A stretch of 35,575 nt of DNA from Lama guanicoe (Eukaryota), in contig MU053557.1 in assembly GCA_013239625.1 (NCBI GenBank), forward strand, positions 6,335,842-6,371,416, in the 5' to 3' direction. Positions 11,680 through 35,575 of this stretch are shown piece by piece. The notes beneath the pieces were generated by a model, which saw nothing but the letters and a program-made list of their open reading frames with translations, did no database searches and had not been told where the DNA came from. Numbering within the stretch: position 1 is the stretch's first letter; each line of letters begins with the position of its first letter. A program made the translations under genes and the position numbers.

Positions 11680-11768
11680 CTGTGGCAGAAGTGCTGGGCA
11701 CACCTGACCAGGATGTGCATACAATGGCAGGAGATGAGGCCCATGGCCAGCAAACTGAGCGGGCCCAT
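11680..11768 (-). CDS. SLC36A2: SLC36A2 coding exon 3, 89 nt
   Basis: ctctag acceptor, GTGAGG donor; [29 protein letters not shown](R), read by hand (this frame is not in the ORF track); the Gly falls at codon 87, as in human G87. Confidence 0.95.
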
Positions 11769-12354: not shown

Positions 12355-12445
12355 CAGGATGCCTGCATTCTTCACAGCCAGGGGTAGTCCCAGAATCCCT
12401 GTGCCTATGTTACCTTTCACCAGGTGAACCAAGGTCTGGAATGCT
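12355..12445 (-). CDS. SLC36A2: SLC36A2 coding exon 2, 91 nt
   Basis: tttag acceptor, GTAAGA donor; (T)[30 protein letters not shown] carries the SLC36 TM1 motif KGNxGTG; phase matches exon 1. Confidence 0.96.
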
Positions 12446-15500: not shown

Positions 15501-15664
15501 GTTATGCCCTTCGTCGTTTCCAAGCCCGGCGACTCTGAAGGGCTCCCATCCAAGAAACCGGAGTCCTTGTTCTGCAGCTTCTCGGCACTTTGGGGAGGGG
15601 ACTTGAGGTCCATTTTGAGGTCAACAGCTCCTGGGGGACCCTCAGCACTCTTTGTCTCGGGCAT
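15501..15664 (-). CDS. SLC36A2: SLC36A2 (PAT2) coding exon 1, 164 nt
   Basis: ATG at 15664 in gcagtcATGc context; translates MPETKSAEGPPGAVDLKMDLKSPPQSAEKLQNKDSGFLDGSPSESPGLETTKGI(T), resembling the mammalian SLC36A2 N-terminus; ends at AC|GTGAGT donor. Confidence 0.95.
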
Positions 15665-15830
15665 GACTGCTTCAGAAAGACAGGGCTCCCGGCTATGGTC
15701 AGGGGTCTGCACTGAGCAGGAAGGTGTCTAGTCAGGTGCAAACTCCAGCTCAGCGGCTTGTGCCTTAGCAGGCTCTGGCCAAGCTAGAATGAAGCCCCGC
15801 CCACCTCCCCCGGAGGGTGCTCCTCCTGCC
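15665..15830 (-). promoter_or_regulatory. SLC36A2 5'UTR/proximal promoter with GC box
   Basis: Directly upstream of the ATG; GTGGGCGGGG Sp1/KLF-type box at about 15795-15804; no clear TATA box. The TSS cannot be placed from sequence. Confidence 0.5.
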
Positions 15831-15949
15831 TGAAGAAGCCCAGTGGAAGAGGATCACTCATCAGCAGGAGGAGAGGAAGGGAGGGTTTTGGGAAAGTAGT
15901 CATCCATGTTTACCTAATACAGTAATGGCAACAGCGACTACAACACTGA

Positions 15950-16145
15950 TCATTTTAATAACTAATATTTATTAATCACTTCACTAAGGGATAGACACTC
16001 TTCCTAAGTGCTTTACCTTTATTTTCTCATTTAATCCTGTACATTAAATGATGAGGAAATCAGGCTCTGAACTAAATGGATCTGCCTAAGCTAGAAAGTG
16101 CCAGAGTAAGGACGATAGCCCAGTGCATCAGGCTTTTTAACCAAT
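15950..16145 (-). mobile_element. MIR SINE
   Basis: ctaagtgctttacc...ctcatttaatcct...atgaggaaatcaggct. Confidence 0.65.
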
Positions 16146-16674
16146 GCCCTATTTCTGCCTCTAAGAAACTATCTACACACCCCCACCTCCTTATTCAACC
16201 CAGGACAGGGGCTCCACTTCTCACTGGCTGTGTATTTGTTGTAAGGCATCCTCTGGGAGCTCCCCTTTCTTAAGCTGGAAAAAAAGGAGCACTTACTCAC
16301 CTCTAACTGCTTCTTAGCTTCTGTGAGGCTCCAGGGAGAGAGGAATGGGGATTCTTTTGGGAAGGGGAGGAGAGGCAGAGATTGTACAACCCCTAGCCAC
16401 ACTTCACTGGGTAGGATGCTGGCATCAGGAGAGGCTGTGATCTGCCTAAGGTCACATGTGACAGTCAGGATAGAACTCTGCAGCTAAAGAAGGTTTTGGA
16501 GGTTTCTCTAGTGTTCCATTCTCTGTCATTATCTCTACTTCAGTGACAGATGAATGGGCCAAAATTTCCTCCTCCTTCAAAATTATAGCATTTTACTCAA
16601 GCCATACCACTCCCCGTACCATTATCCCATGTGCCATGAGCTTTACTTAAATGATCTCACAACTAACTGGTAGC

Positions 16675-16860
16675 AACTGAGATAGATTTGCCTGAGTCCC
16701 TCCCTTACATGGGGCCCTTTCCAAGGTCCTCCAGGCAATTTTGAATTTGTAATTTTGTATTCTTTTTCTTAAAGAGGCCCTCTCCACCCCTTACTCCTAC
16801 CCACAACCTCATTCCCAGGGTATAAGCTTCAGACCCCATAAAGCCTGTCTACTTTTCTGG
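16675..16860 (-). mobile_element. MER53-like hAT DNA transposon
   Basis: gtaattttgtattctttttcttaaagaggccc...tataagcttcagacccca matches the recalled MER53 reverse complement. Confidence 0.7.
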
Positions 16861-18284
16861 GTAGCACTGTTATTTTGTTTTCACACATGTGGAAACCGAG
16901 GCTCGGGGAAGTAAACAATAGTTTGCTTAAGGCCACAACAACTCCTTCGCAGAGCCCAAACTCTGCCCTTGTCATATCTTTCTATCTCTGAAGCCTGTAG
17001 CTTTGACCACTACACTGACCCCCAGGTTTGAATACTGGCCCCACCCTTCAAGTTTCTTACCCTGAATCAACGGAAACACTGCGGTTTGAGAAAAATCCTC
17101 TATTCACTTGTCTGGCACCATTACGTGGCAGTATTTCTGGCCTGAGGGGAGGCAAGATGCATCCTCTGGCCTGTTTATTCACAGCGTTGAGAGTCCATAA
17201 TGCAATTCTAATCTCAGATCTCATCCAACTGACAGGTCTTTGTTCTGGCTGAGGCAACAAGATTGGTCAATAAGATTGTCAAGGATCTTGAGATGTTTAG
17301 GTATAAGGCTAGTTCTTGTTTCCTCTCCAGTTGTGAGAAGACCCCAAGTTAATCTTCAAACCTTTGGGAAAGGGTTTGCTGGAATATCAGAATTTTGCTG
17401 GGGTCCTTTCCAGATATCAGGTAAACGAATACTTGCAGGGCACTGCCTGCAGACTTCCAACTTGTACCACCTGTCCGCAGGCAGGGGGACATCCTCCAGG
17501 GTGGGAGCCTCCAGATAAGCCCTTCTAACACTGGCCCAAGCATCTGTGGCTCTGGGTTCCACCACGGCTCTACTGTGAAGCTGATGTGACCCTAGGAAAG
17601 GTATTGCTCCTCTTTCCCCCTTGCTGGGACACAGGCACTAGGTTATAGAAGACTTTTGAAGAACTGAAGCCCCCAGGGCCTGCGCTTTTCATTGTCAATG
17701 GATGCTGAGATACAGGCCTAGCTTCCCTTGGGGCACAAGCAACTTATGTAAGGACTGCCTAAACTGCTTGACATCTGCACAGACAGTGGAACAAATGGGA
17801 TTTTAATCATGATAATCTTTTATCATCCTTTAGAATAACTAGGGAGCCTTGTCTTTTTTTCTTTTTTTCTTTAACGGCAGTTTGGAAAGTTGGTGTGTTA
17901 TCAGAACCATCTGGGAAGATAATAAAGCACAGAGAGACCCAGACTCACTGAAGTAGGAAGAATTTGGGCCTTTTTGTTTTTACTACATTCCCTAGGTGGT
18001 TCTGATACTGGCCAGAGTTTGAGTTCTAGTATTCTGGGGAGTAGGAGGACTTGCCCACTCTTTAATAGATACCCGAGGCAGAGATCTGGGGAATGCTTTG
18101 CCTGAGGTGGTATAATCTATAGAGATGAACACAAGTACTCTTTTGGGCTGGAAGTTAGGGACTTCAGAAACAACAATGCAACCAATACATGAGTGAAATT
18201 TATTACCTTATCCTTGTTCCCTCAGGCACCTTTTCATTGCCTGTGGCTGTTTACTGTGGTTCTCCCATTGCCTAGGTAATAATT

Positions 18285-18480
18285 CTAATACTAACTCACT
18301 TGTGCCTAGCTTTAGACTAAGTGTGTTACATAAGGTAGGCACTATTAATTATCCTCACTTTATAGATGAGGAAACCCAGGCTCAGAAAGTTTACTTCACT
18401 CGCCTAAGGTGACCCAGTTAGTATTAGAGGCAGAGCTCTGATTTGAATTCAAGCCTCTGAAGCTGTAGTTTAGTTATCCT
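18285..18480 (-). mobile_element. MIR SINE
   Basis: tttatagatgaggaaacccaggctcagaaag...gcctaaggtgacccag. Confidence 0.75.
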
Positions 18481-18629
18481 GTTCCCCTACTATGCCTAAT
18501 GCATAGTAGAAACTCCAAAATTAAAAAACAAAAACAAAAAACACTCCCATGTACATAGCTTATGTGGTTCAAGACTTTGGGGTTTCATGCATCAATCAAA
18601 TTTCCAAATGAATTTTAGAGACTGGCATT

Positions 18630-19084
18630 TGAAAACAAAAGATGTTGTCTGTCATTCTGGTAAACAAAGAGTAGTGCCTGTCATTCCCTTTCTACAACCT
18701 CAAGCCGATCAAGTCAGTTGCCGACTGATACTGACAGTGCGCCCTGAGGGGAATTCTGTGCTTTGGATACTGGCCCTAGGTAGTTAAGATGCTTATCTAA
18801 GGAATAACTTCAATGAACCCAAATTCTTGTACCTTCCCATACAAATAAAAGCACTACAACTTTTAACTTGAGATATGTGTTCCTTGTGATTAGTAGTGGT
18901 CTTTTGATGTTTGTTTGTATTTTTTCCCAGCAAAAAACTCATATATCCTGGTTCCACCCTTACCTCTTCGGAGCACTTCCTCAGAGGTATCTGAGGCTGT
19001 CTCCTGGGCTATAGTCCTCAGTAAGTTCCCCAAATAAAACTTAACTCACAAGTTTTATGTTGTGCAATTTTCTTTCAGTCGACA
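18630..19084 (+). repeat. 5' LTR
   Basis: Starts TGAAAACAAAAG and ends CAGTCGACA; AATAAA near 19033; shares blocks with the 3' LTR (tatctaaggaataa, ggagcacttcctcagagg, cagtaag). Confidence 0.88.
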
Positions 19085-19088
19085 ATTC

Positions 19089-19106
19089 AGGTGACTATGA
19101 AGGGAT
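19089..19106 (+). other. Decayed tRNA-Arg primer-binding site
   Basis: AGGTGACTATGAAGGGAT vs TGGCGACCACGAAGGGAC: 13/18 matches, most differences C>T; 4 nt after the LTR end. Confidence 0.65.
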
Positions 19107-19265
19107 CCAGAGCAGACTTTTCTCCTTTGTCTGAGCTCAATGAGGATCCAGAATCTTGATACTAACAGCAGCCCCTTGTGCCTGTCTGCTCCTTGGTGAG
19201 TCCAGACGAAATTTAGGTGAGCCTCTTTGGTATTGGATTTCACTTTATTGGCTGATGACCCTAAC

Positions 19266-19350
19266 TTTTATTTGGTGGTGGATAAACTCTTTGTTTTTAT
19301 TTGGTGGTGGATAAACTCTTTGTTTTTATTTGGTGGTAGATTAACTCTTT
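19266..19350. repeat. 29-bp tandem repeat, about 3 copies, in the ERV leader
   Basis: Unit ttttatttggtggtggataaactctttgt; two exact copies plus one diverged copy. Confidence 0.9.
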
Positions 19351-19878
19351 CAAGGTTTTTCTTGAAATTAGTTTCAAGAAGTGGTACCTGGGTTATCCAG
19401 TTAAAAAAAAACTCTAAGTAAGTTCGTATTGGGTGATTAGGTAGGAGACTGGCCTGTTGTTTCCCTTAAATTGGCTACTTTAATAGAATTTGTCAGAATT
19501 AAAGTGAAAATAAAGCATGAGAGTTTTCAGCTCCAAAGAGGAAAAGGGACATCTCCTCCTGGCCAGCAACTGCTTTCTCAGGCAACTGAGAAACTTGCAG
19601 GAGTGGTGGAGGCAAGTTCTCATTCCCTGTAGCAGCCCCACAGAGAAACCCACTCATTTTATTAAGAAAACTTGCTTGTTCAGGGACCACACATAAAAGC
19701 TGGCCACTCAGTGATGTGAGCACCTATGACGATTTTAAACTGCCAGAGGGAGAAATCAAGACATATAATACAGCTGAAACAATTCTTGGATGACATGTAG
19801 ATGAATTAAGCTCACAAACAGCACAGTGACCCATCACACAATCATTACTAGCAGTTTTATCTTGACAAACCAACCAGA

Positions 19879-20220
19879 ATGGGAAACAAAGCTTTCAAAA
19901 TTAAAGAAAGAGGAGTAATAGGTTACCAGCCTTCAACTAACACCCCAGCCAGGTTCATGTACATTACTTATAGAATTTACACTTGCAAATACTTACTTAT
20001 TTTGGAAAATTACACTAAGGGAGATCTCAACCTAAAATGGCCAACTTGGGGTTTTTTTAGACATTCCAAAATTAATTTTTGTGTGTGTCCACAGCTAGAG
20101 AAAGCTGGCCATAAGATCAAACAGACTGAATAGAATGCTTATTTTGATTGGTATTTAGAAACTTCTAAAAGAGGAAATGATAAAGTAACTTCTTTGCAGG
20201 AAATCAACCCAAAAATTGCT
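19879..20220 (+). pseudogene. ERV gag (matrix) remnant
   Basis: MGNKAF...TPARFMY...CKYL...LKWPTWG...LEKAGHKIKQTE*NAYFDWYLETSKR; myristoylation-type MG start in the expected position after the leader; in-frame TAG at 20131. Confidence 0.65.
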
Positions 20221-20894
20221 TGAAACAATATCAGAGTTTATAAAAAAGCTGCTAGTGTTAACCTTGCCTCTCCCTCTGCTACTCCCTCATAACTGCCTGA
20301 CCCAGATGCTCTCTCTTCTGTCACCTTCACCTTCTGCTGTTTCCCTCAGCCCCTGCCAGTAAAGGAGGAACTTGCACTTCTCTCCTTGTGCCTCTAAGAT
20401 GTAAATGTTCTAACGGATCTTCTTAGCATTTTGTTCTGTGTTTTGAGAGTCTGTCCTCTACCATCCAGAAGGTACATTCAAAAAGACTAGGATTCCGAAC
20501 AGTCTTTTTATCTGGCTGTGCCAACTCTCAAGGAATTTTATCTTAAGGGGTCCCAGTGGATAAGAGGTCTTTTGTCATCTCAACATTTGTTGCATCACCT
20601 GTACACTGAAGGCCTTTACTTTCTTAGACTTTTTTGGGAGAAACTTTCTAGATCTTGTAAAGGCTGCATCTTTTGTACTCTCTTTTGTGAATGCATCTTG
20701 TATCTTGAATGGTTTGAGTTGCTATTAAAATACTATTCGCCAACAGCTAGACAAATGGATCCTTTAAGTTGGAGAAACTTCTAAATTAGTGATTTTTTAA
20801 GAGAACTCTCTTACAAATAGCTGTTTTTTATTGGTAGCTATTAAAAGACCAAATTAGAAGGTGTATACAAAAAATATAACAGTTAACCGTTATA

Positions 20895-23888
20895 CTTTGG
20901 TAACCATAAGTTTGCTTTCTATGTATGTGAGTCTGTTTCTGTTTTATAAATAAGTTCATTTGTGTCATTTTAAAAATTCCACACATAAGTGATATCATAT
21001 AATATTTGTTTTCCTCTTTCTGATTTACTTTACTTAGATAATCTCTAGGTCCATCCATATTGTGGAAAATGGCATTATTCCATTCTCTTTTATGGCTGAG
21101 CAGTATATATGCCACAACTTCTTTATCCAATCATCTGTTGACGGACATTAGGTTGATTCCATGTCTTGGCTATTGTAAATTGTGCTGCTATGAACACGGG
21201 GGTGAATGTATCTTTTCAAATTAGTCTTCTCCAGATCTTGATATGCCAAGATGCAGAATTGCTGGATCATATGGTAAGTCTGTTTTGAGTTTTTTAAAGA
21301 ATCTCCATACTGTTTTCCACAATGGCTGCACCAAACTACATTCCCACCAACAGTGTAGGAGGGATCCCTTTTCTCCACACCCTCTCCAGCATTTATCTTT
21401 TGTGGACTTTTTAATGATGGCCATTCTGACTGGTGTGAGGGGATACCTCATTGTAGTTTTGATTTGTATTTCTCCGATAATTAGTGATATTGAGCATCTT
21501 TTCATGTGCCTATTGGCCATCTATATGTTTTCATTGGAGAGATATCTGCTTAGGTCATCTGCCCATTTTTCGATAGGGCTGTTTGGTTTTTCCTTATTGA
21601 GTTCTATGAGCTGTTTGTACATTTTGGAACTTAAGCCCTTATCAGTCACATCACTTATCATTTGCAAATATTTTCCCCTGGTGTGTACACTGTTTTTCAT
21701 TTTGTTTATGGTTTCCTTTGCTGTGCAAAAATATAAGTTTAATTAGGTCCCATTTGCTTATTTGCTTTTATTTCTGTTGCCTTGGGAGACTGACCTAGGA
21801 AAACATTCTTAAAATTTTTGTCAGAGAATGTTCTATGTTCTCTTCTAGGAGATTTATGGTGTCCTTTCTTATGTTTAAGTCTATAAGCCATTTTGAGTTT
21901 ATTTTTGTGTATGGTATGAGGGAGTGTTCTAACTTCACTAATTCATACACAGCTGTCCAGCTTTCCAAACACCACTTGTCAAAGAAACTGTATATTTTCT
22001 CCATTGTATATTCTTGCTTCCTTCTCAAAGATTAATTGACCATAGGTGTCTGGGTTTATTTCTGGACTCTGTTCTCTTCCAATGATCTATATGTCTGTTT
22101 TTGTGCCAGTACCATGCTGTTTGGATTACTGTAGCTTTGTAGTATATTCTGAAGTCTGGGAAGGTTATGCCTCCAGCTTCACTCTTTTTCTTCAGTATTT
22201 CTTTGGCAATTTGGGGTCTTTTGTGATTCTATATAAATTTTAGAATTATTTGTTCTAGTTCTGTGAAAAATGTCTTGGTTAATTTGATAGGAATCACATT
22301 AAATCTGTAGATTGCTTTGGGTAGTATGACCATTTTAACAATATTAATTCTTTCAATCCAAGAGTGTGGGGTATGTTTCCATTTCTTTAAATCACCTTTA
22401 ATTTCCTTTATCAATGTTTTATAGTTCTCAGTATATACATCTTTTACCCCCTTAGTCAGGTTTATTCCTAAGTATTTTCTCTTTTTGATGTGATTTTAAA
22501 AGGGAGTTTTTTTTTTTAACTTTCCTTTTCTGATATTTCATTGTTAGCGTAAAGAAATGCAACGGATTTCTCTATGTTAGTCTTGTATCCTGCTACCTTC
22601 CTGAATTCATTTATCAGCTGTAGTAGTTTCTGTGTGGAGTCTTTAGGGTTTTCTATATATAGTATCATGTCATCTGCATATAGTGACAATTTTACCTCTT
22701 CCCTTCCAATGTAGATGCCTTTTATTTCTTTTTCTTGTCTGATTGCTATGCTAGGACTTTCAAAACTATATTGAATAGAAGCTGTGAGAGTGGGCATCCT
22801 TGTCTTGTACTAAATTTTAGTGGGAAGGCTTTCAATTTTTCAGCGTTGAGTATTGTGCTGGCTGTAGGTTTGTCACAAATAGCTTTTATTATGCTGAGAT
22901 ACGTTTCCTCTATACCCACTTTGGTGAGAGTTTTTATTATGAATGAATGTTGAATTTTATCAAATGCTTTTTCCGCATCTATTGAAATGATCATGTGGTT
23001 TTTGCCCTTTTTTTTGTTGTTGATGTGGTGTATCACATTGATTGATCTGCATATGTTGAACCATTCTTGATTCTGGGATTAATCTGAATTGATCATAGTC
23101 TATGATCTTTATTATGTGTTGTTGGATTTGGTTTGCTAATATTTTGTTGAGAGTTTTTGCTTCTATATTCATCTGAGATTTTGGCCTGTAATTTTCTTTT
23201 TGGGTAGTGTCTTTGTCTGGTTTTGGTATCAGGGTGATGGTGGCTTCATAGAATGGGTTTGGAAATGTTCCTCCCTATTCAATTTTCTGGAAGAGTTTGA
23301 AGAGGATAAGTATAAGTTCTTCTTTGTATGTTTGGCAGAATCCCCAGTGAAGCTATTCTGTCCTGGACTTTTGTTTGCAAGGATTTTTTTTGTCTTTTCC
23401 ATTTCAGATTCTCTTTCACTTCTAGTGATTGGTCTGTTCAAATTATCTACTTCTTTTTGATTCAATTTTGGTAGACTGTATGTTTCTAGAAACTTGTCTA
23501 TTTCTTCTAAGTTGTCCAATTTGTTGACATATAATTGTTCATAGTATTCTTTTCTTTTTTCTTGGTATCAGTTGTACTTTCTCCTTTTTCATTTCTTACT
23601 TTGTTTATTTGTGTTCTCTCTTTTCTTCCTAGTGAGCCTGGCCAGAGGTTTGACAATTTTGTTTACTCTTTCAGAAAACCAGCTGTTGGTTTTATTGATT
23701 CTTTCATTTCTGTTTTATTTATTTCCTTCCTGATCTTTATTATTTCCTTCCTTCTACTGACTTTAGGTTTTGTTTGTTCTTCTTTTTCTAATTCTTTTAG
23801 GTGGTAGGTTAGATTGTTTATTTGAGGTATCTCTTGTTTTCTGAGGAAGGCCTGTATCACTATGAACTTCCCTCTTAAGACTGCTTTT
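20895..23888 (-). mobile_element. L1 (cetartiodactyl-type) ORF2/3'UTR fragment nested in the ERV
   Basis: Broken ORF2 pieces: [32 protein letters not shown] (RT), [28 protein letters not shown]; many frameshifts. Confidence 0.95.
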
Positions 23889-25118
23889 TTCCCTTAAATT
23901 AAGAACTCTTTTAATTTAAAACAAACAAACAAACAAATCTGATTTGGGAAGTCTTATTTGTAGTCTTGGTTTCCCCTCAAAGGGTCTTACAGATGCTAAT
24001 AAAAACATTAGATTAATTAATGTTAATTAGGTTGATTAACAGGGGACTAAGAAGAAGCTGAGGGGAAAGTCAAGAGACTTCTTCCCAAAAAGGTGAAACT
24101 TTTAAGACTACTCTTCCCAACAGTATGGAAGGCTTTAGATGGTTATTAAGAAATAGAATAAGTAAAGTGGATATTGATGGCGTTAAAACAAAGGTTTTGA
24201 TACAACATCACCCAAAGCTGGATGGGCCAAAGGGACTCCCTATTGGTCACGCCAACGTTAAAAGGATGAAAGAAGTCTACTCTATTTACCTCTAATTAAA
24301 AAAAAAAATGTATAAGGCTGGAAGAAAATTACACAGAGATACTTGATAAGCAATTGCTTGGGAGCAACAGTTAGACTAATTAATCAGGTTAAAGACTGAC
24401 AAAAGGGCCTGAGCCTCTTGGCTCAATCCTTCCCCAGGAACCCCAAAGCCTTTTATACAAAAATGGATAAAATGGCTGGGGGATAAAAGGGAAAGTTTCT
24501 GGGACTCCAAGCCAAGATTTGTTGATTGGGTCCTAAGGGAAGCTAAAGTTAAAGGTATGAGTTGATACAATTGAGATAAAAGTCTATAAAAATTGGTGTA
24601 TTTGAATAGGCTTATATAAGATGGTTACATCTCTTTGCTTAATTATTTTACAGAATAGACATTATGTCTCACTGGGGAATACTTTCCCTGCCTGGTATTA
24701 TAAGACAAGGCTTATAAATCCATCTCCAAAGCAATATTAATTAAAATACTAAAATACCAAAAGAAACCACCAGAGTTACCTGAGCCCACACAACATGAAG
24801 TAAAAACTGGGGGTTAATATTCAGGGGCTAGGAAAAGTAATAATGGAGATTTTTTTTGCCCCTAGGGTAAATTGCTCTGGATTTAACTTGTGTACTCAGA
24901 AAAAGGGCCTTTTGTTGAATGCTTTGTGCAAACTTCTGAAAAGACATGATAAACTGAATCCTAAATTCTAGAACATAGAACTCTTGGTTTCCGGTTTAGT
25001 TGGAAATCTTGTCACTAATTAAAAAGCAAATTAAGGAAAATGTATTTGGGCAAATCAATCTTTTGATATTATTTAGGTGGCATGCCAGTTCTTTGGGGGA
25101 TTAAAAGCAACTGTCTTT

Positions 25119-25263
25119 TTTGTTTGTTTGTTTGTTTGTTTTGTTTTCCAGACGGAGGCCATTAGGTTTCCTTATTTATTTTTGATGGAGGTACTGGAGA
25201 TTGAACCTAGGACCTCATGCATGCTAGGATCCACTCTACGACTGAGCTATACCCTCTCCCCCG
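25119..25263 (-). mobile_element. tRNA-derived SINE (camelid Vic-1-like) nested in the ERV
   Basis: Minus strand reads GGGAGAGGGTATAGCTCAGTCGTAGAG (A box)...GGTTCAATCTCC (B box), then an A-rich (CAAA)n tail; TSD aaaagcaact(g/a)tcttt at 25103-25118 and 25264-25279. Confidence 0.85.
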
Positions 25264-28200
25264 AAAAGCAACTATCTTTGTCTTGCAGCTCTCTACATAA
25301 CAGAAATGTAAACACCCACATTGACCTGAGACTGAGCCTAATTAGCTCAATCAGGTAGAAACTGAAACCAAAGGGAAAAAGAGCTTTTTAAACTCAAACT
25401 GCTAAAAAGGCTCCTTCATCCAAAATCTAATTAATAGTCTCCATAAGGATTTATCCAGGACAAATATAAATCTTAAAAGTCTTCTCCACAAATAGTAAAA
25501 AGCCTTAGTCATCTGAGCAAATAAATTTAAGTCATTTCAACTGTGATTTACAAACTAGTAAGTTTATATTGTAATACCGGATTCATGACTAAGTTTTAAA
25601 AATGAAACTATAAGATCTCTGGTTATGTCTGTTTAAATGTCTTTGTGTGCATTAAACATGTATGTCTCTACCTTCAGATAGTATTATCAAAATTAAATTT
25701 GTAGAAGAGCTTTATTTAACTGACTTAAAAAGAAACGCTTACAAGTTAAGTATTTCTAAATGTAACAGAAACTAGCCCAAATGAATTTCAAGTTCACAAG
25801 ATCTAGGAAATATTCAATATTAAATTAATATTAGTTACTAAAATTTAAGTTTGTTGGTTTAACTAATATAGACATGTTACTTTTATTGCACCTAGGTTTA
25901 CTAATAGTTAAATAAGGTCATATTACCTACGTTATAAAATTTATCGGTAAGAAAAATGGCTGACTTGGTTTAACATCTCATAAATGTTTCATGTGTAATC
26001 TAAACACAATTGTTGGGAAAAGTGAATTAAATATATATAGATGAAATAAGAGCTTTTAAGTGATCTCTTTTAAGAATAAATATGTTTCATGGTATGTCTA
26101 CTTAAAATTAATTTCTCCAGATTTTTGGTAACTTGAAGCTTTACAGTTTTGCCAAGTTAAGCTAAATAATGAAAGCTTATTAAGTATCTATATCATTCCC
26201 AAATAAAATAAGATACTGAGACATTCATTGTTGAATACAGGCTTCCTTTTGCAGAGAAACTAAAGATATTTAGGACTACTAATAAAAATTTTTGGTGCTA
26301 CACTGAAAATTTTTCTATAAAAAAGCACACATTTTTAAATGTTTATAAGTTTGCCAACCTACAGAATAGTAATATAAAAGGGAGTTCATAGTTGCTTACT
26401 TCTTAGTTTTCACTAGAAATTAAAGTTTTTAAAAGTTAAGAATTCTAATTAATATATGTAGGTAAAACTACTAAAATTAATAAAGAGAACAACTTTATAT
26501 GAAAGGAAAAGGTATAAGGAATGGAAATGTATTTTGTTAAGGGAAAAGAAAATAATTTTTTCCTGGAGAAAGAGAAAGAAAGGGAAAAACATAGGACAAA
26601 ATCTGAAAGTAAAAAAGAAAGTTGTAAAACGGTTGTGGGAAAGGAACTCTGAGAAAAGTTCTACTCATGGTTAAGACTGGCTAAGATTAAAATAAAAAAT
26701 AAATTTTAACATCAAAAGCTGGTACAAACTATTATGCTATCCACCAGAAATTGACACAACATTGTATATTCACTATAATTCAAAAAACAAGTAAAAAAAG
26801 AAAAAGGTGGTACAAAAGTAGAATTTGGTTTTCTCTCTGTGTTAAGAGAACAAAATTTTCTTGGAATATTGATCTGCTTTTGATAATGGGTTGTAAATTT
26901 TCTTTACCATTTAAGTTATCTGTTGTAACTTTCTGTATTTATCTTTAAAATTGTTTATTGCCACTCTGGTTGAATGAATAAGTATTGTTTTGCAGTGATC
27001 TATGATCCTAACTGACCAAGTGTTTTAAAACCTTTTGATATCTTTGACAGACTCAATTCTAAATGAAGTTCTTTTGACCTCTAGCTAACTTTGGGATGCC
27101 TCAATGGAACCCTGAAACACCACCAAAAGAGAGAGATTAAACTAGTTAGGTTTATTTTCTATGTTTAATTACATGGGAAACATTGTCAAATAAGTGGCAG
27201 TAAACCTTCTTAGGTTATGCTGTATGGGTATGTATCATTAATATAGATATTACAAAAATTATATGGAATTCCTAAAAATCTGGTAAGTCTGGTATAATTA
27301 TTATCAGTCATAATTCTAGTTATATTAAAATGTTGTATGTCACAGAAATAACCAAGTTTCTTTGTCAGCTGCATGTAATCAGATCTTTAACCATGCCATT
27401 TAAAGTCATCTGTCATTGCTTTACTCTGATGCTTGAAGATTTTTCAAGAAGATTCATAAAAGGGACTTTTTGACAAATAAGGTTTCTAATGACTTTTAGA
27501 TCATATTACTAAACAGGGTAAGAAATTACAAAACTCTAATGGAAAACCTGATGCCTTCATCCAGATCAACAGGAATTAACTGCATAGGACTGAATAAACA
27601 GATAAATATGATTTATAATTTTATGACTTTTTGTCTGAACTATTACAGGCTTTTAATCTTTGTTTTCTAGAAAATTTTTCCTTTTATGCTAACTATGACC
27701 TACAACAAGTTGATAAAGTATACCTTTATAAATGAAGATGAAATATTTATCTTTTTCTCTCTGCCTGATCTGTCCAGAATTTGGCTTCTCCAGCTGGTTC
27801 CCCTCTGAACTTGATAGTTTATTGTGATTCAAATTACAACTACTTATACTAATCATTGTTTTAAATTGTTCTCTCTTCATTGTATTCAAAAGGTTTATGC
27901 TTTGTGTCTTTCTCTGGTGTACTATGAACTTATTAATGTTACTAGCTATATTACATATATCCTGTCTATCTCTTAAGATTGCTGTCTCTGGCTTTACCCA
28001 ATGTGTAATCAGGCCTCCAACAAAGTTAATGATGGCTAAATGTCTTGAGGCAATTGATCAGATATATAACTATATAAAATAATTGTAATAGTGCAACTCT
28101 AGATACAGGAAGAAGCAACAAGGGAAAATAGTTCCTGGATCATAACAGACTAGTAAATTAGTTGATACAGAGAATTTTGGGTTATCAACAGGGCCTAACC

Positions 28201-28335
28201 CAAAAAATAGACCATTGAGTGGCTTACCAACAAAATCCTAGTCTGATTTAGTAATGAGACTTCCTAGCACCCTGGGACAAACTGGTCATGAAACTGGTCC
28301 AAAACGTGGTCAATTTTATGACCCACAGGGAACAC

Positions 28336-28771
28336 TATAAACAAAGAATGGTGCCTGCCATTCCAGTTCTACAAAGATCAAGCCATTAGCCACTGCAGTC
28401 TCCCACTGACAGTGCACCTTGGAGCATTCAGGAAGCATTTTATGCTTTGGATACGGGCCCAAGATAGTCAAGATGTATATCTAAGGAATAATTTCAATGA
28501 ACTGAGATTCTTGCATCTTCCCATTCAAAAAAGGCACAAAATCATTAACTTGACATGTATGTTCTTCGTGATTAGCAGTAGTCTTTTCATGTTTGACTAC
28601 CTTTCTTCTCAGTTAAAAAACCTTCTGTATATTCTAATTCCTCCCTTATTTCTTTGGAGCACTTCCTCAGAGGCATCTGAGAGGCTGTCTCGCGGACTAT
28701 AGTTGTCAGTAAGGTTCCCGGATAAAGCTTAACTTGCACTTTTTACTTTATGTTTTTTCTTTCAGCTGACA
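28336..28771 (+). repeat. 3' LTR
   Basis: Starts TATAAACAAAG (TG>TA) after a decayed purine tract; ends CAGCTGACA, followed by the CATT TSD. Confidence 0.88.
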
Positions 28772-28829
28772 CATTGCCAAATTCTCATTTTTCTCTGTAA
28801 GAATCTTAAAAAAATTCCTGTTATTTCTT

Positions 28830-28977
28830 TTATTTTTTATTTTTTTTTAACATTTTTTATTGATTTACAATCATTTTACAATGTTGTGTCAAATTCCAGT
28901 GTTCAGCACAATTTTTCAGTCATTCATGGACATATACACACTCATTGTCACATTTTTTTCTCTGTGATTTATCATAA
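28830..28977 (-). mobile_element. Young, extremely 5'-truncated L1 3' end
   Basis: T-rich tail, then ttttattgatttacaatcattttacaatgttgtgtc; perfect 12-bp TSD ctgttatttctt at 28818-28829 and 28978-28989. Confidence 0.85.
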
Positions 28978-29549
28978 CTGTTATTTCTTAAAACAAAGAA
29001 CATTTCAACCCCTCAATGCTGAAGGACGCATCTCGGGATAAAGGACACTGTTTTAATGCTAAGAGTACTCCTCCCCTTTCTCGTTAGTCAAAGCTCTGTT
29101 CCTTTGGTTCCTCATTGTGAAATGATGAGTGCATTTATTGTTTTCCAGGCAAAAGGGAGGATTCAATGAGAAAAGGGACAAGTACAGGACCTGAATCACA
29201 GGTAGTGCCCCAGAGAGGGGGGCTATTTTTATTATATCACTTCATTACTAGAGGGAACTTGAAAGGTCATCTTGTTGAGCAGTACTATCTCACCAATCAG
29301 GGAACCGAGGCCCAAGAGGGGAAGGGACACAGTGAGTTAAGAGTGGTGCCATGGCAGGACTGAGACTATAACCCAGCCTAGGTCTCCTGACTTCCCAGCC
29401 TTGTTGTTTTCACCACTTCCCAAGCACCCTGAAATGCAGTAAAAACAGGAAGTTTATTTCATTCATTCAACAAATATTTGCCAAGTCCCTACCATATGCT
29501 GAATGCTACCGTAGGACCAGGAAGAAGGAGAACAAGCAGAACAAGTGCC

Positions 29550-29695
29550 TGTGCCTTAGCTAGAGCTGCACAACAGAGTACAGCAGGCCGGGTGGCTTAA
29601 ACACTAACATTTATTTTCTCACAAATTCCGGGGGCTGGAAGTCCCAGGTCAGCGTCTGGCACGGTCAGCCCCTGATGAGAGCTCTCCTGTAGAGG
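29550..29695 (-). mobile_element. MLT1 (ERVL-MaLR) LTR fragment
   Basis: gggtggcttaaaca...atttattttctcac...ggctggaagtcc hallmark. Confidence 0.75.
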
Positions 29696-29699
29696 GCCG

Positions 29700-29701
<2 letters not shown>

Positions 29702-29746
<45 letters not shown>
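29702..29746. repeat. (TG)n microsatellite abutting an assembly gap
   Basis: At least 22 perfect TG units, running into Ns. Confidence 0.97.
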
Positions 29747-29813
29747 NNNNNNNNNNNNNNNNNNNNNNNNNNNNNNNNNNNNNNNNNNNNNNNNNNNNNN
29801 NNNNNNNNNNNNN
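29747..29813. other. Assembly gap (67 N)
   Basis: Run of N bases. Confidence 1.
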
Positions 29814-30399
29814 CGTAGTAGATGCAGCTATGATAAGGACAAATGAGATCATGTCTGTAAACTACTTAGCACATGGGAAACATTCAATAAATATGTGCTA
29901 TTCATTCTCCTTGTTAATGATGAGTATGAATTACTCAGAAAACTAAATCCAAGTGGTCACACTATATTTTTCCAAACATTTTTATTCACACATTAGATTA
30001 TGAATGAGAATTTCTATTCTTTAGGGCTATTAATTTATAGTAGCCAAAAATCAATTAGGTCATATACACAAGAAAAAAGGTATCTTGGTTTAGATTTTTT
30101 TTTAAGAAAGAAAAATGACATGATTGCATTTTCAGGGAGCGATATTATTAATAATAACCAAAAGTTATTGAGTCACTTCTAAGTCACTTCTCAGCACTGA
30201 GCTTACATAGATTATTTCTAATTACAACCCCATGAAGCAAGTACTGTTATTATTATTTTTCTAATTGAAGTAAAGTTGATTTATGTTATATTAGTTTCAG
30301 GTGTACAAAATTAATCCCAAGGATTTAATGGACCTTTTGAAATAGAAAAGCTTTTTACACTAAGGCTGTTGAGAGAAAGGCCTATAATGAGGGGTGCTA

Positions 30400-30630
30400 G
30401 CAGTCATGTACCACTGTGTACTGTGTGTGAAGAGTGAACATGAATAGAGCCCACGCAGAGAAAAACAAACCTGAGAGATGGAAAGAGACTGAGTCCTGGG
30501 GATACCACTTGAGTAGCTGGATCCAGCCATGCCTGAAGTTACATATACACATGGACTTTTTTTTTTTGTTTTAAAAAATTGGATTGGATTTTAGTCACTT
30601 GCAAAGGAAAGAAAGAAATCTGACTAAACA
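30400..30630 (+). mobile_element. Old MLT1 (J/K/L-like) LTR fragment
   Basis: ctggatccagccatgcctgaag...gtcacttgcaa...ctgactaa. Confidence 0.65.
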
Positions 30631-30942
30631 TCAGTCATTGCTGGGAGGGCTTTTAGATATCATTTAGTCTAATCCCTTTGTTTGGTAGATGGAGAAACTG
30701 AGAGGAGAAGAGAAGTATCCTACTTAGAAGATAGGAGAATTAATGGCCGTGTTAAACTAGAATCCAGGTCTCTTGATTTACCTAGTCCACTAATTTCCAT
30801 GGTTTTCCATGACAGTTTCCTGGCATTCTTCTCTATGCTAAGACAATTCTCACTCATGTCTTTGCTACTCCCTTCTAACGAGGGGATGCCAGCCACCCTC
30901 TGCACGTCATCTTTCCGGCTCTGAGGCTGGGACTTCATTCAC

Positions 30943-31104
30943 CAGAGGTTGGGGAGGTTGAGGGTGATGCTCACCTGGGTGGTGGCCCCAAACTTGAGGT
31001 AGTCCAAGGCCTCGGAGGTCCTGGGTGGTGATCACCAACATCCCCCCAAATAGGATGAGAGGAAACTGGGCACAGTCCCACATCTTGTTTTCCAGAAGCA
31101 AAAC
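30943..31104 (-). pseudogene. SLC36-family pseudo-exon (exon-8 equivalent), frameshifted
   Basis: cattcacag|VLLLENKMWDCAQFPLILFGGMLVITTQDL /frameshift/ [23 protein letters not shown](W)|gtgaat, compared with SLC36A1-type [22 protein letters not shown]...[22 protein letters not shown]. It is 162 nt; that peptide needs 167 nt. Confidence 0.88.
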
Positions 31105-33590
31105 CTGTGAATGGAGTGGCCATAATTACACAGTGATCTCCATTTATGTTATCATTCTAAATTCATCAATTTCAGTCATGAAAAAGTTTGACAGAGGAAA
31201 AGAAAAAGCAAGCTCCAATACGTGGTGCCACTAGGCACAACAAACTGCTGAATTATAACAATGTCAACCACTAAAAAGACCTTAGGGGACTTTGAGTCCA
31301 GCCAGCCACACTCAGGTATCCTCTTCCATGCGCAGGAAGGACTCCACCTCTGAGCAGCCCTGTGGCCAGGGTTGATGATAATAGAAATTACCGATAAAAT
31401 GTTGCTGTTATAGACATTACTGATAAAATATATAAGCTGATGTCTTTGCAGGACTTGTGCTTTGGGCTCTGACCACCAGGAGGAGCACCTTCCCTAATTT
31501 TAGGTCTGGAAGCACAGGTGTGCAGACTACAGTATAATCTTCGGTTCCTTTTGTGTGGGGGTAGAGGGGAGACTTTCTGATACACCAAAATATGCAGCAG
31601 CTCCTGTCCAAAGGATGGAAAAGGAATATAAATTGCACTGGCACCTGGACTGAAGAAATTGTTTCCTTATACATGGTATGAGTTAGTTGTCTAGAAAACT
31701 CTCTACAATGCTCATCCTTTATTCCAGCTCCAGCTGTCTATAATCAGTAATTCTGTATCTCAGAGTAGTAGTGGGGGGGCATCAGCTCCGAATAATGGTT
31801 CAGGCAGCCTTACTCGTGTGTTGGGAGGAGTGGGGTGTGTGTGTGGGGGGTGTGAAATGTGTGTGTGTAGGGAGCAGTGGGGCAGTTGGTGATGGGGAGA
31901 TCCAGAGATAATCCTGTCAAAAGTAGAACTAAAAAGAAAACTGAAGATAAAAGAGGAAGACCAGAAGGAGCAACTGACATGGGACATTTGGTCTGGAAGC
32001 TGAGAGATGAGGGCTTAAGCCTTGGCTTTGGGATTTGACAGCCTAATGCTCTTAGACTAGATTGCTTCTAGCCCTCAGTTTCTGTGTGTAGATGTGAGTG
32101 CATTTTACATATATATACTACATACATACATACACACACACACACCCCACCCATATGTGGTGTGCATGTATTTTTTTCTGAGCTATATGAGAATAACTGA
32201 TGTGTTTTAAAGATTGTGTTCCTCTTGTGATTTCACTCAAAAGTTCAAAGGATAAGAAAATATTTGAAAACCTTTGCTAAGTTCCCTTTTAGCGCTGACT
32301 TTTTTCCAGTGCTGGATGAAAACAGATCTAGCACCCAAACGTGCCAATTAAGAGCATACCAAAGTAAACAGATTTTAAATATGGACACCATGGTGTTTAA
32401 GTAGGTTTACTTGTTGGCTGGGATTGTCATACAGATGTTTTCAGGTCTCCCATTCTACAGATGGACAAAATGAGGTCCATTGAAAAAAGCAGATTTGTTT
32501 AACACCCCATAGCTTTCTGTCAGGTATTTTTCTCTCTGGCATGTTAAAGGATGAGGGAGCTGGATGGCCAGAGATGCTCAGTCCTCTCATCTGATGCCTT
32601 CACTTTACAGATGGGGAGCCAGAGGCTCAGAAAGACTAATGGTGGTCATATTAACAAGGTCCCTTATCTAATACAGATAATGTGAGCAGCTATTATTACT
32701 TTGGTTCGTATGATAGGCCAGGCAATATGCAAAGTGCTTTAAACGCACTGTTTAATTCTCACCACAATCCTGAAAGCAGGGATTATTATCTTTAAGGATA
32801 AGAAAATTGAGGTTGAGGGCCTCTCTTGCTTTAGTTTCTCCTTCTGTAAAACAAGGAAGTTGAACTAAAACAGCATGTCTGAAATGAAAGTCATTTATCA
32901 TATATATGTTCTACCTGTATTATTTTTCTCATCAAGTCTGTTTTAAAGGGAAATTGATTTTAGGAAGAAGTATTATAGTGCAACTCTAAATCACCATGAA
33001 TAGAACATATCAACACAAATACATAATTTAAGAAAGTAAACAAGCATTACTCATCTCACCACTAAGTTTATCACTTGTACCATCAGAGGCATGGAGGCAC
33101 ACTTTGAAAAGCTACTGAATTAAAGGACTTCCTGGTCCAGTCCTATCTTTGTCTCTCCAAGGACACAGAATCCTGGAGGCTGGTGAGATCCGACACTTGA
33201 GAGCAATGCTCTTCAACAGACACTAACCATGGTAGGGAGCAACCACTAAAACTTCACTGTAAACAAGATAATCTCCAGGTTATTGACAGCAAATGGGACC
33301 CCAGGAGCCTCTGAAGGTTTTTCTTCTTTCTGGGAGCAGGGAGACACTTTCCCAGCCAGGGGAGCATTGATCTCCTGGGGGGTTTCCACGGTTGCTTGGG
33401 CAGGGGGGCCCTCATGTGATAAAGACTACCTGCAGAGTTCACACGCTGCATCCTATCTTTGCCTTGCTTTTGGCTCTTGAAAAGGAGAAATGGTGGAAGC
33501 TCAGCCCTTTGGCATTCAACAGGCTTTGTGGTCAGCAGCATTACTGAGTGCTTGGAAACCACAACATGCATGTATAAAGGACTTTTAGAG

Positions 33591-33990
33591 TGTTGTGACT
33601 CAAAGTGTGCTCAGAGGACCAGCAGCATCGGCCTCACCTGGGGGCTTGTTGGGAAAGCACAATCTCAGGTACCACCCAGACTCCTGAATCGGAACCTGCA
33701 TTGTCAATGTTCCCAGGTGGTTCGTGTGCACACTGGAGTTTGGGTGGCACTGCTCTGAGCTGCTGCTGACGCGGTTGGTCTGAAGACCACTCCTCACAGC
33801 AGTGCTTCAGAGTAATTACTCCCAAACTTGGCTGATCATCAGAATCAGCTGGGGAACTCTAAAAACCTCACAGATTCCTGGATTCCAAATTCCAAAGATT
33901 CAGATCCAGTACAACTGAGGCAGGGCTTGGGAATCTGTTACTAGACAAGGTCTTAAAGCGATTCTGATGCTTAGCCAGGTTTAGGGGAGA
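33591..33990. mobile_element. Cluster of MER5A1/MER5B-like hAT-Charlie elements
   Basis: ctcaaagtgtg...ggaccagcagcatcggcctcacctggg, and ccaaacttggctgatcatcagaatca...gattctgatgc. Confidence 0.75.
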
Positions 33991-34009
33991 TAACAGCTTA
34001 CATTTAAGG

Positions 34010-34210
34010 AGAACTTAACTGTGTACCAGGCAGGAGCCTAAGCTCTTTACATGTATTAATCCGTTTGAGTCTCACAACAGCCTTAGGAGGTAGGTGTTAG
34101 TATTAGTCTCATTTTCCACAGGGGAAAACTGAGGCACAGGAAAGTACCGTAATTTGTCAAACTTTGAAGTGGTAGAACTATAAACAGAATTCAGGTAACT
34201 CGGCTGTAGA
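34010..34210 (-). mobile_element. MIR SINE
   Basis: ctcacaacagccttagggaggtagg...gggaaaactgaggcacag. Confidence 0.8.
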
Positions 34211-34211
34211 G

Positions 34212-34304
34212 CATGGTTTTTCAGCTTTGGCACTACTGACATTCAGGGTGCCCTGTGCATTGCAGGATGTTTAACTGTGTCCCTGGCTTCCAAGCACTAA
34301 TTGC
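34212..34304 (-). mobile_element. Truncated MER20
   Basis: ggcactactgacatt...cctgtgcattgcaggatgttta...tccctggc matches the MER20 reverse complement; the match stops abruptly at the OR sequence. Confidence 0.75.
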
Positions 34305-34924
34305 TCTGCATTCACCCATGTATTTCTTTGTATCCAATCTTTCTTTTCTCGAGGTTGCCATTACGTCCACAGTGGTGCCTAAGATGCTGGCCAACACACT
34401 TTCTCTCACCAAAGCAATATCCTTCATGGGGTGCCTTGCACAGTCTTTCTTCTACTTTCTCTTGGTATCCACAGAATTCTTCCTCTTGGCTGTCATGTCC
34501 TTCGATCGGTACGTTGCCATCTGCAACCCACTAAGGTATACCATCATCATGAACAAGAAAACATGCGTATCATTGCTTCTGGGATCTTACGGGGGTGCAT
34601 TTTTGTCAATTTTGGCATCAGCAATATTAAGTGCTCCTCTGCCCTTTTGTGGGCCAAATGTAATCAATCACTTTTTCTGTGACAGTGCCCCTGTGCTAAA
34701 GCTGGTCTGTGCGGATATCTCTCTGGCTGAACTGGCTGACTTTGTCTCCTCTGCTGTGTTGTTACTGGGTTCCTTGCTCCTGACAGGACTGTCTTACACG
34801 TACATTATCATTACAATCTTTAGAATTCCCTCTGTCCAGGGACGGCAGAAAGCTTTCTCCACCTGTGTGTCGCATATCACAGTGGTAACACTTTACTATG
34901 GAAGCTCCATCTTCATCTACGTCC
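34305..34924 (+). pseudogene. Olfactory receptor fragment, OR6-family-like, TM2-TM6 only
   Basis: [38 protein letters not shown] and YGSSIFIYV motifs; no stops; lacks the N-terminus, TM1 and TM7. Confidence 0.9.
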
Positions 34925-35575
34925 AACGGACTCTTTCCTCTTCATTGCCATTGCCATCCTGTTTTCAGTGGCTCTGACAGGGAACATCACACTGATTCTT
35001 CTCATTCGAATGGATCCCAGACTCCACACTCCAATGTACTTTCTCCTCAGTCAGCTCTCTTTCATCGACATGATGTACATCTCCACCACTGTGCCCAAGA
35101 TGGCAGTTAACTTTCTGTCCAATAGTAAGACCATCACTTTTCTAGGCTGTGAGATTCAGACATTTGTGTTCACGGTCCTTGGCGGAACTGAAGCCCTTCT
35201 TCTTGGGTTCATGTCTTATGATCGCTACGTGGCCATCTGTCATCCTTTACGTTACCCTGTGCTCATGAGCAAGAGGATCTGTTGGTTCACAGTCACGTGT
35301 GCGTGGACCAGTAGTTCTCTGAACTCTTTAATACATACGGTGTATGTATTTCAACTTCCCTTCTGTCCATCTCGACTCATCAACCACTTCTTCTGTGAAG
35401 TCCCATCCCTGTTGCCATTGGTGTGTCAGCACACTTCTCAGTATGAACATACGATCCTCCTGAGCAGCCTTATTATTCTGTTGTTACCATTCACGGCCAT
35501 TGTGGCTTCCTATGCCTGTGTGATCTCTGTGGTTTTCCAGATGAGTTCAGGAAAAGGACAGACAAAAGCTATTTC
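34923..35575 (+). pseudogene. Olfactory receptor fragment, OR2AK2-like, N-terminally truncated, runs off the window
   Basis: Open frame [21 protein letters not shown]...[13 protein letters not shown]...[10 protein letters not shown]...[25 protein letters not shown]...[12 protein letters not shown]...[13 protein letters not shown], closely resembling recalled human OR2AK2; no start codon or N-glycosylated N-terminus. Confidence 0.88.

Follow-up and report, generated by a model that had tools for sequence, protein, structure and literature searches.

A fossil exon upstream of guanaco SLC36A2 probably derives from an unnamed and ancient SLC36 paralogue of placentals, for which intact copies are predicted in lemurs

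Introduction

Which gene left a solitary exon of an amino acid transporter upstream of SLC36A2 in the guanaco (Lama guanicoe)? In human and mouse, SLC36 is regarded as a family of four (SLC36A1–4), and to our knowledge the parent of this exon is absent from that set and hence has no reference name; it is called gene X here. At the horse locus three SLC36 genes are described, with SLC36A1 on the strand opposite SLC36A2 and SLC36A3 and approximately 100 kb from SLC36A2 (PMC2535566). Among the papers listed in a search of the literature (titles, starts of abstracts, and passages of papers including PMC5809530), none described a fifth SLC36 gene, although a passing mention in print is possible. 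A first-pass annotation of the window, by which we mean the whole stretch of 35,575 nt analysed here and to which all coordinates refer, had proposed that the exon is the relic of a lost additional paralogue. Our analysis indicates that it is a fossil exon 8 of an unnamed ancient placental SLC36 paralogue, predicted to be intact in lemurs, and it leads from there to a fifth member of the family filed under the misleading label "PAT1-like".

Results and Discussion

The relic exon and its lesion

The relic exon lies at 30943..31104 on the minus strand and has phase 0/2. On that strand it is preceded by ...CATTCACAG and followed by GTGAAT. The AG acceptor is at 31105..31106, at the start of the family exon 8, and the ancestral phase-2 GT donor (TG/GTGAAT, the slash marking the border) is at 30941..30942. 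A second, internal donor (CAG/GTGAGC, after base 30975, with its GT at 30973..30974) is nearer to the consensus than the ancestral GT at 30942. Exon 7 of SLC36A2 in the window ends in phase 0, and exon 8 therefore begins V-L-x-L-E-N. In intact members of the family exon 8 is made of 55 codons and 2 nt, a total of 167 nt; the relic measures 162 nt, and a net 5 nt have thus been lost. The resulting frameshift falls after codon 28–31, in a zone at about 31011..31021 whose candidate positions differ in score by no more than one point.

These coordinates and borders agree with the first-pass description of an exon with AG and GT at the family borders, phase 0/2 and a net 5-nt deletion; both peptides quoted there are found at the relic. 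The distance of about 15 kb to the SLC36A2 start codon on the same strand also holds (15.3 kb from the ATG at 15664). A processed pseudogene is ruled out, as exons are not joined and the homology ends at both splice sites. An intact multi-exon transporter frame is likewise rejected by the frameshift and by the window, in which no other exon of the gene was found. With a genomic exon, both splice borders, a disabling indel and lineage-specific loss, the relic is like unitary (non-processed) pseudogene relics, which, together with cryptic exons in read-through transcripts, are a general class. A 20-nt motif at 31020–31039, just before the frameshift, is repeated with 80% identity at 30974–30993, at the internal donor, and the lesion may have arisen by local copying.

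The relic matched SLC36A1 proteins in tblastn with E values down to 6e-10. The best single segment in 15800–34200 scored 44.3 bits with the lemur X protein introduced in the next section, 36.2 bits with fox SLC36A1 and 31.6 bits with alpaca SLC36A2, against maxima of 25.4, 26.2 and 29.6 bits, respectively, in 200 shuffles; the margin for SLC36A2 alone is slim. A profile of 17 sequences matched the relic with 24.1 and 16.6 bits. Pfam (Aa_trans) alone gave no match on the 53-residue relic piece, and of the 11 candidates from a protein search with the read-through exon none matched at E 0.01, which marks a limit of sensitivity and not absence. The significance of the alignment, which the earlier annotation had put forward for checking, is confirmed by the tblastn E value and the shuffles, and a chance match is rejected on the same grounds. 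On homology together with exon-8 borders and phases, we assign the relic to the SLC36 (PAT) family.

Gene X in lemurs and the elephant

A profile search of representatives at 50% identity, in which 150 of 5,720 matches were listed, identified a protein with the unusual exon-8 residues of the relic. This protein is G3UA62, a degraded gene model from the elephant (Loxodonta africana). With residues 164–398 of G3UA62 as the query, 71 matches were obtained from 1,566 candidates, and two lemur clusters outranked every SLC36A1 and SLC36A2. Together these clusters comprise nine sequences, belonging to the genera Microcebus, Eulemur, Lemur, Propithecus and Prolemur. A form of 513 residues is present in each of the five lemur species, and the RefSeq entries are labelled "PAT1-like" with no low-quality flag. 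The name hides a separate paralogue. The five RefSeq/UniRef proteins are 89.9–97.1% identical to one another and 64–68% identical to SLC36A1 and SLC36A2, and Propithecus also has separate A1 and A2-like proteins. The accessions of Propithecus X (XP_012513675.1) and of the PAT2-like protein (XP_012513676.1) follow one another, and both records give a scaffold length of 8,048,197 bp, which suggests that the two genes are adjacent. The lemur proteins carry a C-terminal extension of approximately 20 residues.

When 374 proteins were scored against the relic, the nine lemur X sequences took the top nine places with 35–36 identities in 49 positions; the other 36 of the top 45 reached at most 32 of 49. 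The motifs KFGATTQ, AQFP and GGM are shared by the relic and lemur X, which matches the relic better than camel A1 or alpaca A2 does. The first-pass reading of these residues as a mixture of A1-like and A3-like features did not survive, as they are the signature of gene X itself, and a chimera of A1 and A3 is rejected. The lemur proteins differ from the relic in being predicted as full length, whereas the relic is one frameshifted exon. The elephant gene (G3UA62, G3TYS2 and G3U6A9) falls in the same clade and shares AQFPLIL and YLK.GATT with the relic; unlike in the camelid, most of its exons are recognizable but degraded, the exon 5–6 region is unalignable, and E270 reads K. Among the sequences seen, which were reached with a degraded protein as the query, lemurs alone have intact copies. 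When metagenomes were scanned for the lemur protein, 64 sequences matched the pattern and none of them was confirmed. The proposal of an additional paralogue therefore stands, but the gene is not lost everywhere, as five lemur species have predicted intact copies and the elephant has a degraded one. The first-pass annotation had also called for a species with an intact gene at this position; the lemurs supply a predicted gene, which, from the Propithecus accessions and scaffold length, may lie next to SLC36A2.

Placement of gene X in the family

Comparison with other species was at the protein level, and all trees were calculated with LG+G4 and no mixture model. In a tree of 38 full-length proteins, lemur X forms a clade (100/100) on a stem of 0.4, sister to all A2 (83/98). 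We then used 30 rows, ten having been dropped for speed, with the relic and elephant blocks included. The relic, G3UA62 and four lemur X rows form one clade (100/99), a grouping that may be favoured by the elephant row, which consists of five trusted blocks aligned on the lemur row. In this tree X is the sister of A2 at 95/98. Since elephant, aardvark and armadillo A2 fall within the A2 clade, the duplication that separated X from A2 would predate crown placentals. One marsupial PAT1-like row is just outside A1+X+A2 with weak support (85/81), and an origin of X on the placental stem is possible. From these sequences, X is best placed as the sister of SLC36A2 and older than crown placentals.

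The relic was also placed on a fixed full-length backbone. Of 73 placements set up, log-likelihoods were obtained for 72, and 13 were put to the approximately unbiased (AU) test. The X stem was the best of the 72 evaluated, every placement outside X falling at least 10.8 log-units below it, and the other 12 tested were rejected (p 0.0005–0.046). The exon-8-only tree (29 rows and 55 columns, Cercocebus A1 being left out for want of an exon-8 anchor) again joins the relic to X (87/92). On exon 8 alone, the AU test rejects none of the groupings of the relic with A1 (p 0.129), A2 (p 0.115) or A3 (p 0.227). Thus, nesting of the relic within the clade of a known paralogue, which had been set in advance as the outcome that would undo the proposal, fails on the full backbone, and the suggested exon-8 tree with A1, A2 and A3 gives the X clade but no rejection of the other groupings.

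Two other parentages have to be weighed here. If the relic were a drifted, lineage-specific partial duplicate of exon 8 of SLC36A1, A2 or A3, the groupings left by the exon-only tests would be accommodated, as would a lone exon beside an apparent rearrangement junction. We consider this very improbable, because the placements on camel A1 (p 0.004), alpaca A2 (p 0.0005), pig A3, the A1 stem (p 0.021), the A2 stem (p 0.046, marginal) and the placental A3 stem (p 0.011) are all rejected, and because of the closer match and the motifs common with lemur X. A recent copy of any of the three is not supported by these comparisons, which point instead to a member of the X clade. The other possibility accepts X as an ancient paralogue and traces it to the SLC36A3 lineage, as the A3-like residues of the first-pass annotation would suggest. 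It is unlikely, though better placed: grouping of the whole X clade with A3 is retained by the AU test (p 0.137), and KFG..TQ is common to A3 and the relic. The best trees put X with A2 all the same, lemur X is 64–65% identical to A2 as against 56.5% to jerboa A3, and X+A1 is rejected (p 0.0036).

Proposed origin and loss of gene X

We estimate a probability of roughly 0.87 that the relic derives from an ancient SLC36 paralogue, X, which stood in tandem upstream of SLC36A2 and is dead in camelids, its exon 8 now being a neutral cryptic exon. Gene X (a candidate SLC36A5) would have arisen by tandem duplication before the placental radiation, most likely from the SLC36A2 lineage, and would have sat upstream of SLC36A2 on the same strand. 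Its homology, borders, clade and shared frameshift, as well as the arithmetic of the splice junctions, are read directly; its position in other mammals, the timing of the loss and neutrality are inferred. The frameshift of the relic recurs in C. ferus, where model XP_032333026.1 reads through it, and the lesion therefore predates the split of camel and alpaca, which is given as more than 11 million years (PMC13751797). X would have died in the camelid line before this split. The relic end branch of 0.37, compared with a lemur path of approximately 0.14 from the same node in the 30-row tree, suggests a loss much older than the split. The relic can presumably no longer encode a transporter, while its acceptor would still work, and the internal donor would let read-through transcripts take up 130 nt and splice into SLC36A2, most likely neutrally.

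Searches of the window with eight X-clade proteins (tblastn) and with the 17-sequence profile brought up no further X exon, the best stray match having an E value of 0.49 at 24134–24048. In the interval from the relic to SLC36A2, exons 9–10 of X could not be detected, and exons 1–7 are absent from the window. An assembly gap of 67 N at about 29746–29813, beside a CA microsatellite and 1.1 kb downstream of the relic, is in its stated size too short to hide exon 9; its true size may differ.

The relic in models of camelid SLC36A2 transcripts

In the alpaca RefSeq models X1–X3, a SNAP47-like coding sequence is joined to the relic, and the relic to SLC36A2 exon 2 (12355..12445, minus strand). In the C. 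ferus model X1, the relic is joined to the acceptor at 15711 in SLC36A2 exon 1 (15501..15711, minus strand). The models of both species use the AG at 31105 and the internal donor, giving a cryptic exon of 130 nt (31104–30975); the ancestral donor is unused in the models seen. Both RefSeq reading frames are recovered when the junctions are computed from the window sequence. The C. ferus model has a further 32 residues upstream, for which no match exists in the window. Isoform models of this kind from the NCBI pipeline rest on RNA-seq introns. Contig sets of RNA or guessed RNA (n=14) hold 0.09–0.21 of the words of 30700–31400, which fits an exon-sized match and is not counted as evidence.

The two species read the relic in different frames. 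In the ancestral frame of the relic, the window and C. ferus disagree at three residues out of 27; in the other frame, the window differs from the alpaca model at two residues within the relic. The differing frames and these changes argue against constraint at the protein level, and the relic looks like a neutral cryptic exon of SLC36A2 transcripts, as far as the splicing in automatic RefSeq models goes. The earlier view of a fossil exon stands in that there is no intact transporter frame, with the correction that the relic is not silent in the annotation. The camelid relic, probably inert, mainly accounts for the odd long SLC36A2 isoforms in camelid annotation.

Selection on the relic and a different history of the locus offer two further readings. 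Exapted in camelids, the relic would be under selection as an alternative 5′ exon with a role in SLC36A2 regulation or in a longer N-terminus. Use of both splice sites of the cryptic exon in models of two species would fit, as would the finding of no X exon but this one in the window. The models of the two species disagree in frame and in acceptor, however, and with the residue changes and the long end branch we regard exaptation as improbable. The alternative history accepts the relic as a member of the X clade but holds that X is not the tandem neighbour of SLC36A2 elsewhere and that a rearrangement involving olfactory-receptor and SNAP47-like DNA carried the exon in. Olfactory receptors beside SLC36A2 are, as we understand it, not the human arrangement, and a camelid rearrangement junction may therefore lie between 31.1 and 34.2 kb. 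Olfactory-receptor pieces begin approximately 3 kb upstream of the relic, and the alpaca models join SNAP47-like exons to it. Set against this are the Propithecus accessions and scaffold length, the shared strand of the relic and SLC36A2, and the sister relationship of X and A2 in the best tree, which make such an import quite improbable, more so than exaptation. A dead tandem neighbour of SLC36A2 with a neutral cryptic exon is the reading that we retain.

The alpaca SLC36A2 model X3 leaves its own exon 8 early, at a position homologous to the internal donor of the relic, with a shift of frame; a cryptic internal donor in exon 8 may be common to the paralogues. SLC36A2 isoforms of 397 residues starting from the exon-3 methionine occur in four camelid species, several with multiple transcripts, and may represent additional variants with upstream exons in which exon 1 is skipped.

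The predicted lemur protein and its substrate pocket

Lemur X aligns to human PAT1 (PDB ID: 9V3T) over residues 43–491 with an E value of 2e-207. It retains H55, C180 and C329, which we take to be functionally important positions of PAT1, and E270, the unwound TM1 motif, F154 and F267 are present in all five lemur rows. Of the hPAT1 pocket residues named in the structural report, G59, N60, G62, T63, G64, L65, F154, M228, F267, E270 and G271 are kept (PMC13473456). There E270 is the proposed proton site, and Y158, called invariant in the PAT family, is said to anchor all substrates; the Y158F mutant of hPAT1 shows markedly weakened binding of D-serine and D-cycloserine (PMC13473456).

Most pocket residues are thus as in SLC36A1, but Y158 is replaced by F and T150 by D in all lemur X (9/9). 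The TM3 motif is borne by 283 of 375 proteins counted (92 are without it); the other 274 of these 283 have Y158, and none has D150. Positions 150, 154 and 158 are about one helical turn apart, an arrangement that may turn D150 towards the inner pathway. A second pocket change, histidine in place of Y303 (PAT1 numbering), occurs in X of Lemur catta and Prolemur. SLC36A2 (PAT2) is like X in being its best-supported sister, the neighbour of the relic on the same strand and a gene with the same exon-8 phases. It differs in being intact across placentals and in its pocket, with Y158, T150, I65 and S271-type residues in place of the F, D, L and G, respectively, of lemur X.

From this pattern we consider it probable, at somewhat better than even odds, that lemur X is a proton-coupled carrier of small amino acids of the PAT type with a shifted substrate preference; the alternative would be a low-affinity or decaying PAT. 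The equal length and high mutual identity of the proteins in five lemur species count against decay, and they only suggest constraint. With the proposed proton site E270 kept and the tyrosine said to anchor the substrates gone, the lemur protein offers a naturally occurring test case for the recent hPAT1 structure.

A wider proposal, which we put forward tentatively and at a little under even odds, is that X was a fifth SLC36 gene of the placental ancestor, sister to SLC36A2, with its TM3 pocket reshaped (Y158F and an acidic residue at 150) for a different class of substrate. It would have been lost many times, at least in afrotherians and camelids and by implication in haplorhines and rodents, and would be working mainly or only in Malagasy lemurs. 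If this is true, X would escape gene-loss screens that take human or mouse as the anchor. Such repeated loss, with retention in lemurs, would pose a question for diet or for kidney and gut physiology.

Surroundings of the relic

Exons 3–7 of SLC36A2 are at 11768–11680, 11138–11043, 7740–7656, 5150–4932 and 3574–3476 on the minus strand, with exon 8 beyond the window edge; exon 6 is 100% identical to that of Vicugna pacos SLC36A2. Between the relic and SLC36A2, direct repeats of approximately 430 nt (18661–19084 and 28338–28771, 75% identical) bound a stretch of about 10 kb that has no stop-free run over 173 residues and looks like an old LTR element. By eye, we take the region at approximately 20.9–23.9 kb inside it to be LINE-1-like and that at about 25190–25260 to be a tRNA-like camelid SINE. 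The SNAP47-like segment fused to the relic in the alpaca models lies beyond the window end, and a near-identical piece is annotated on another contig of 61 Mb; the two copies suggest a segmental duplication.

On the plus strand, 34240–35575 holds two olfactory-receptor pieces fused out of frame. The first is 5′-truncated (7tm_4, E value 7e-43) and breaks near TM6–7 at approximately 34930, where the second is joined from its TM1 region (E value 3.6e-27). The fusion looks as it would after a deletion between tandem olfactory-receptor genes.
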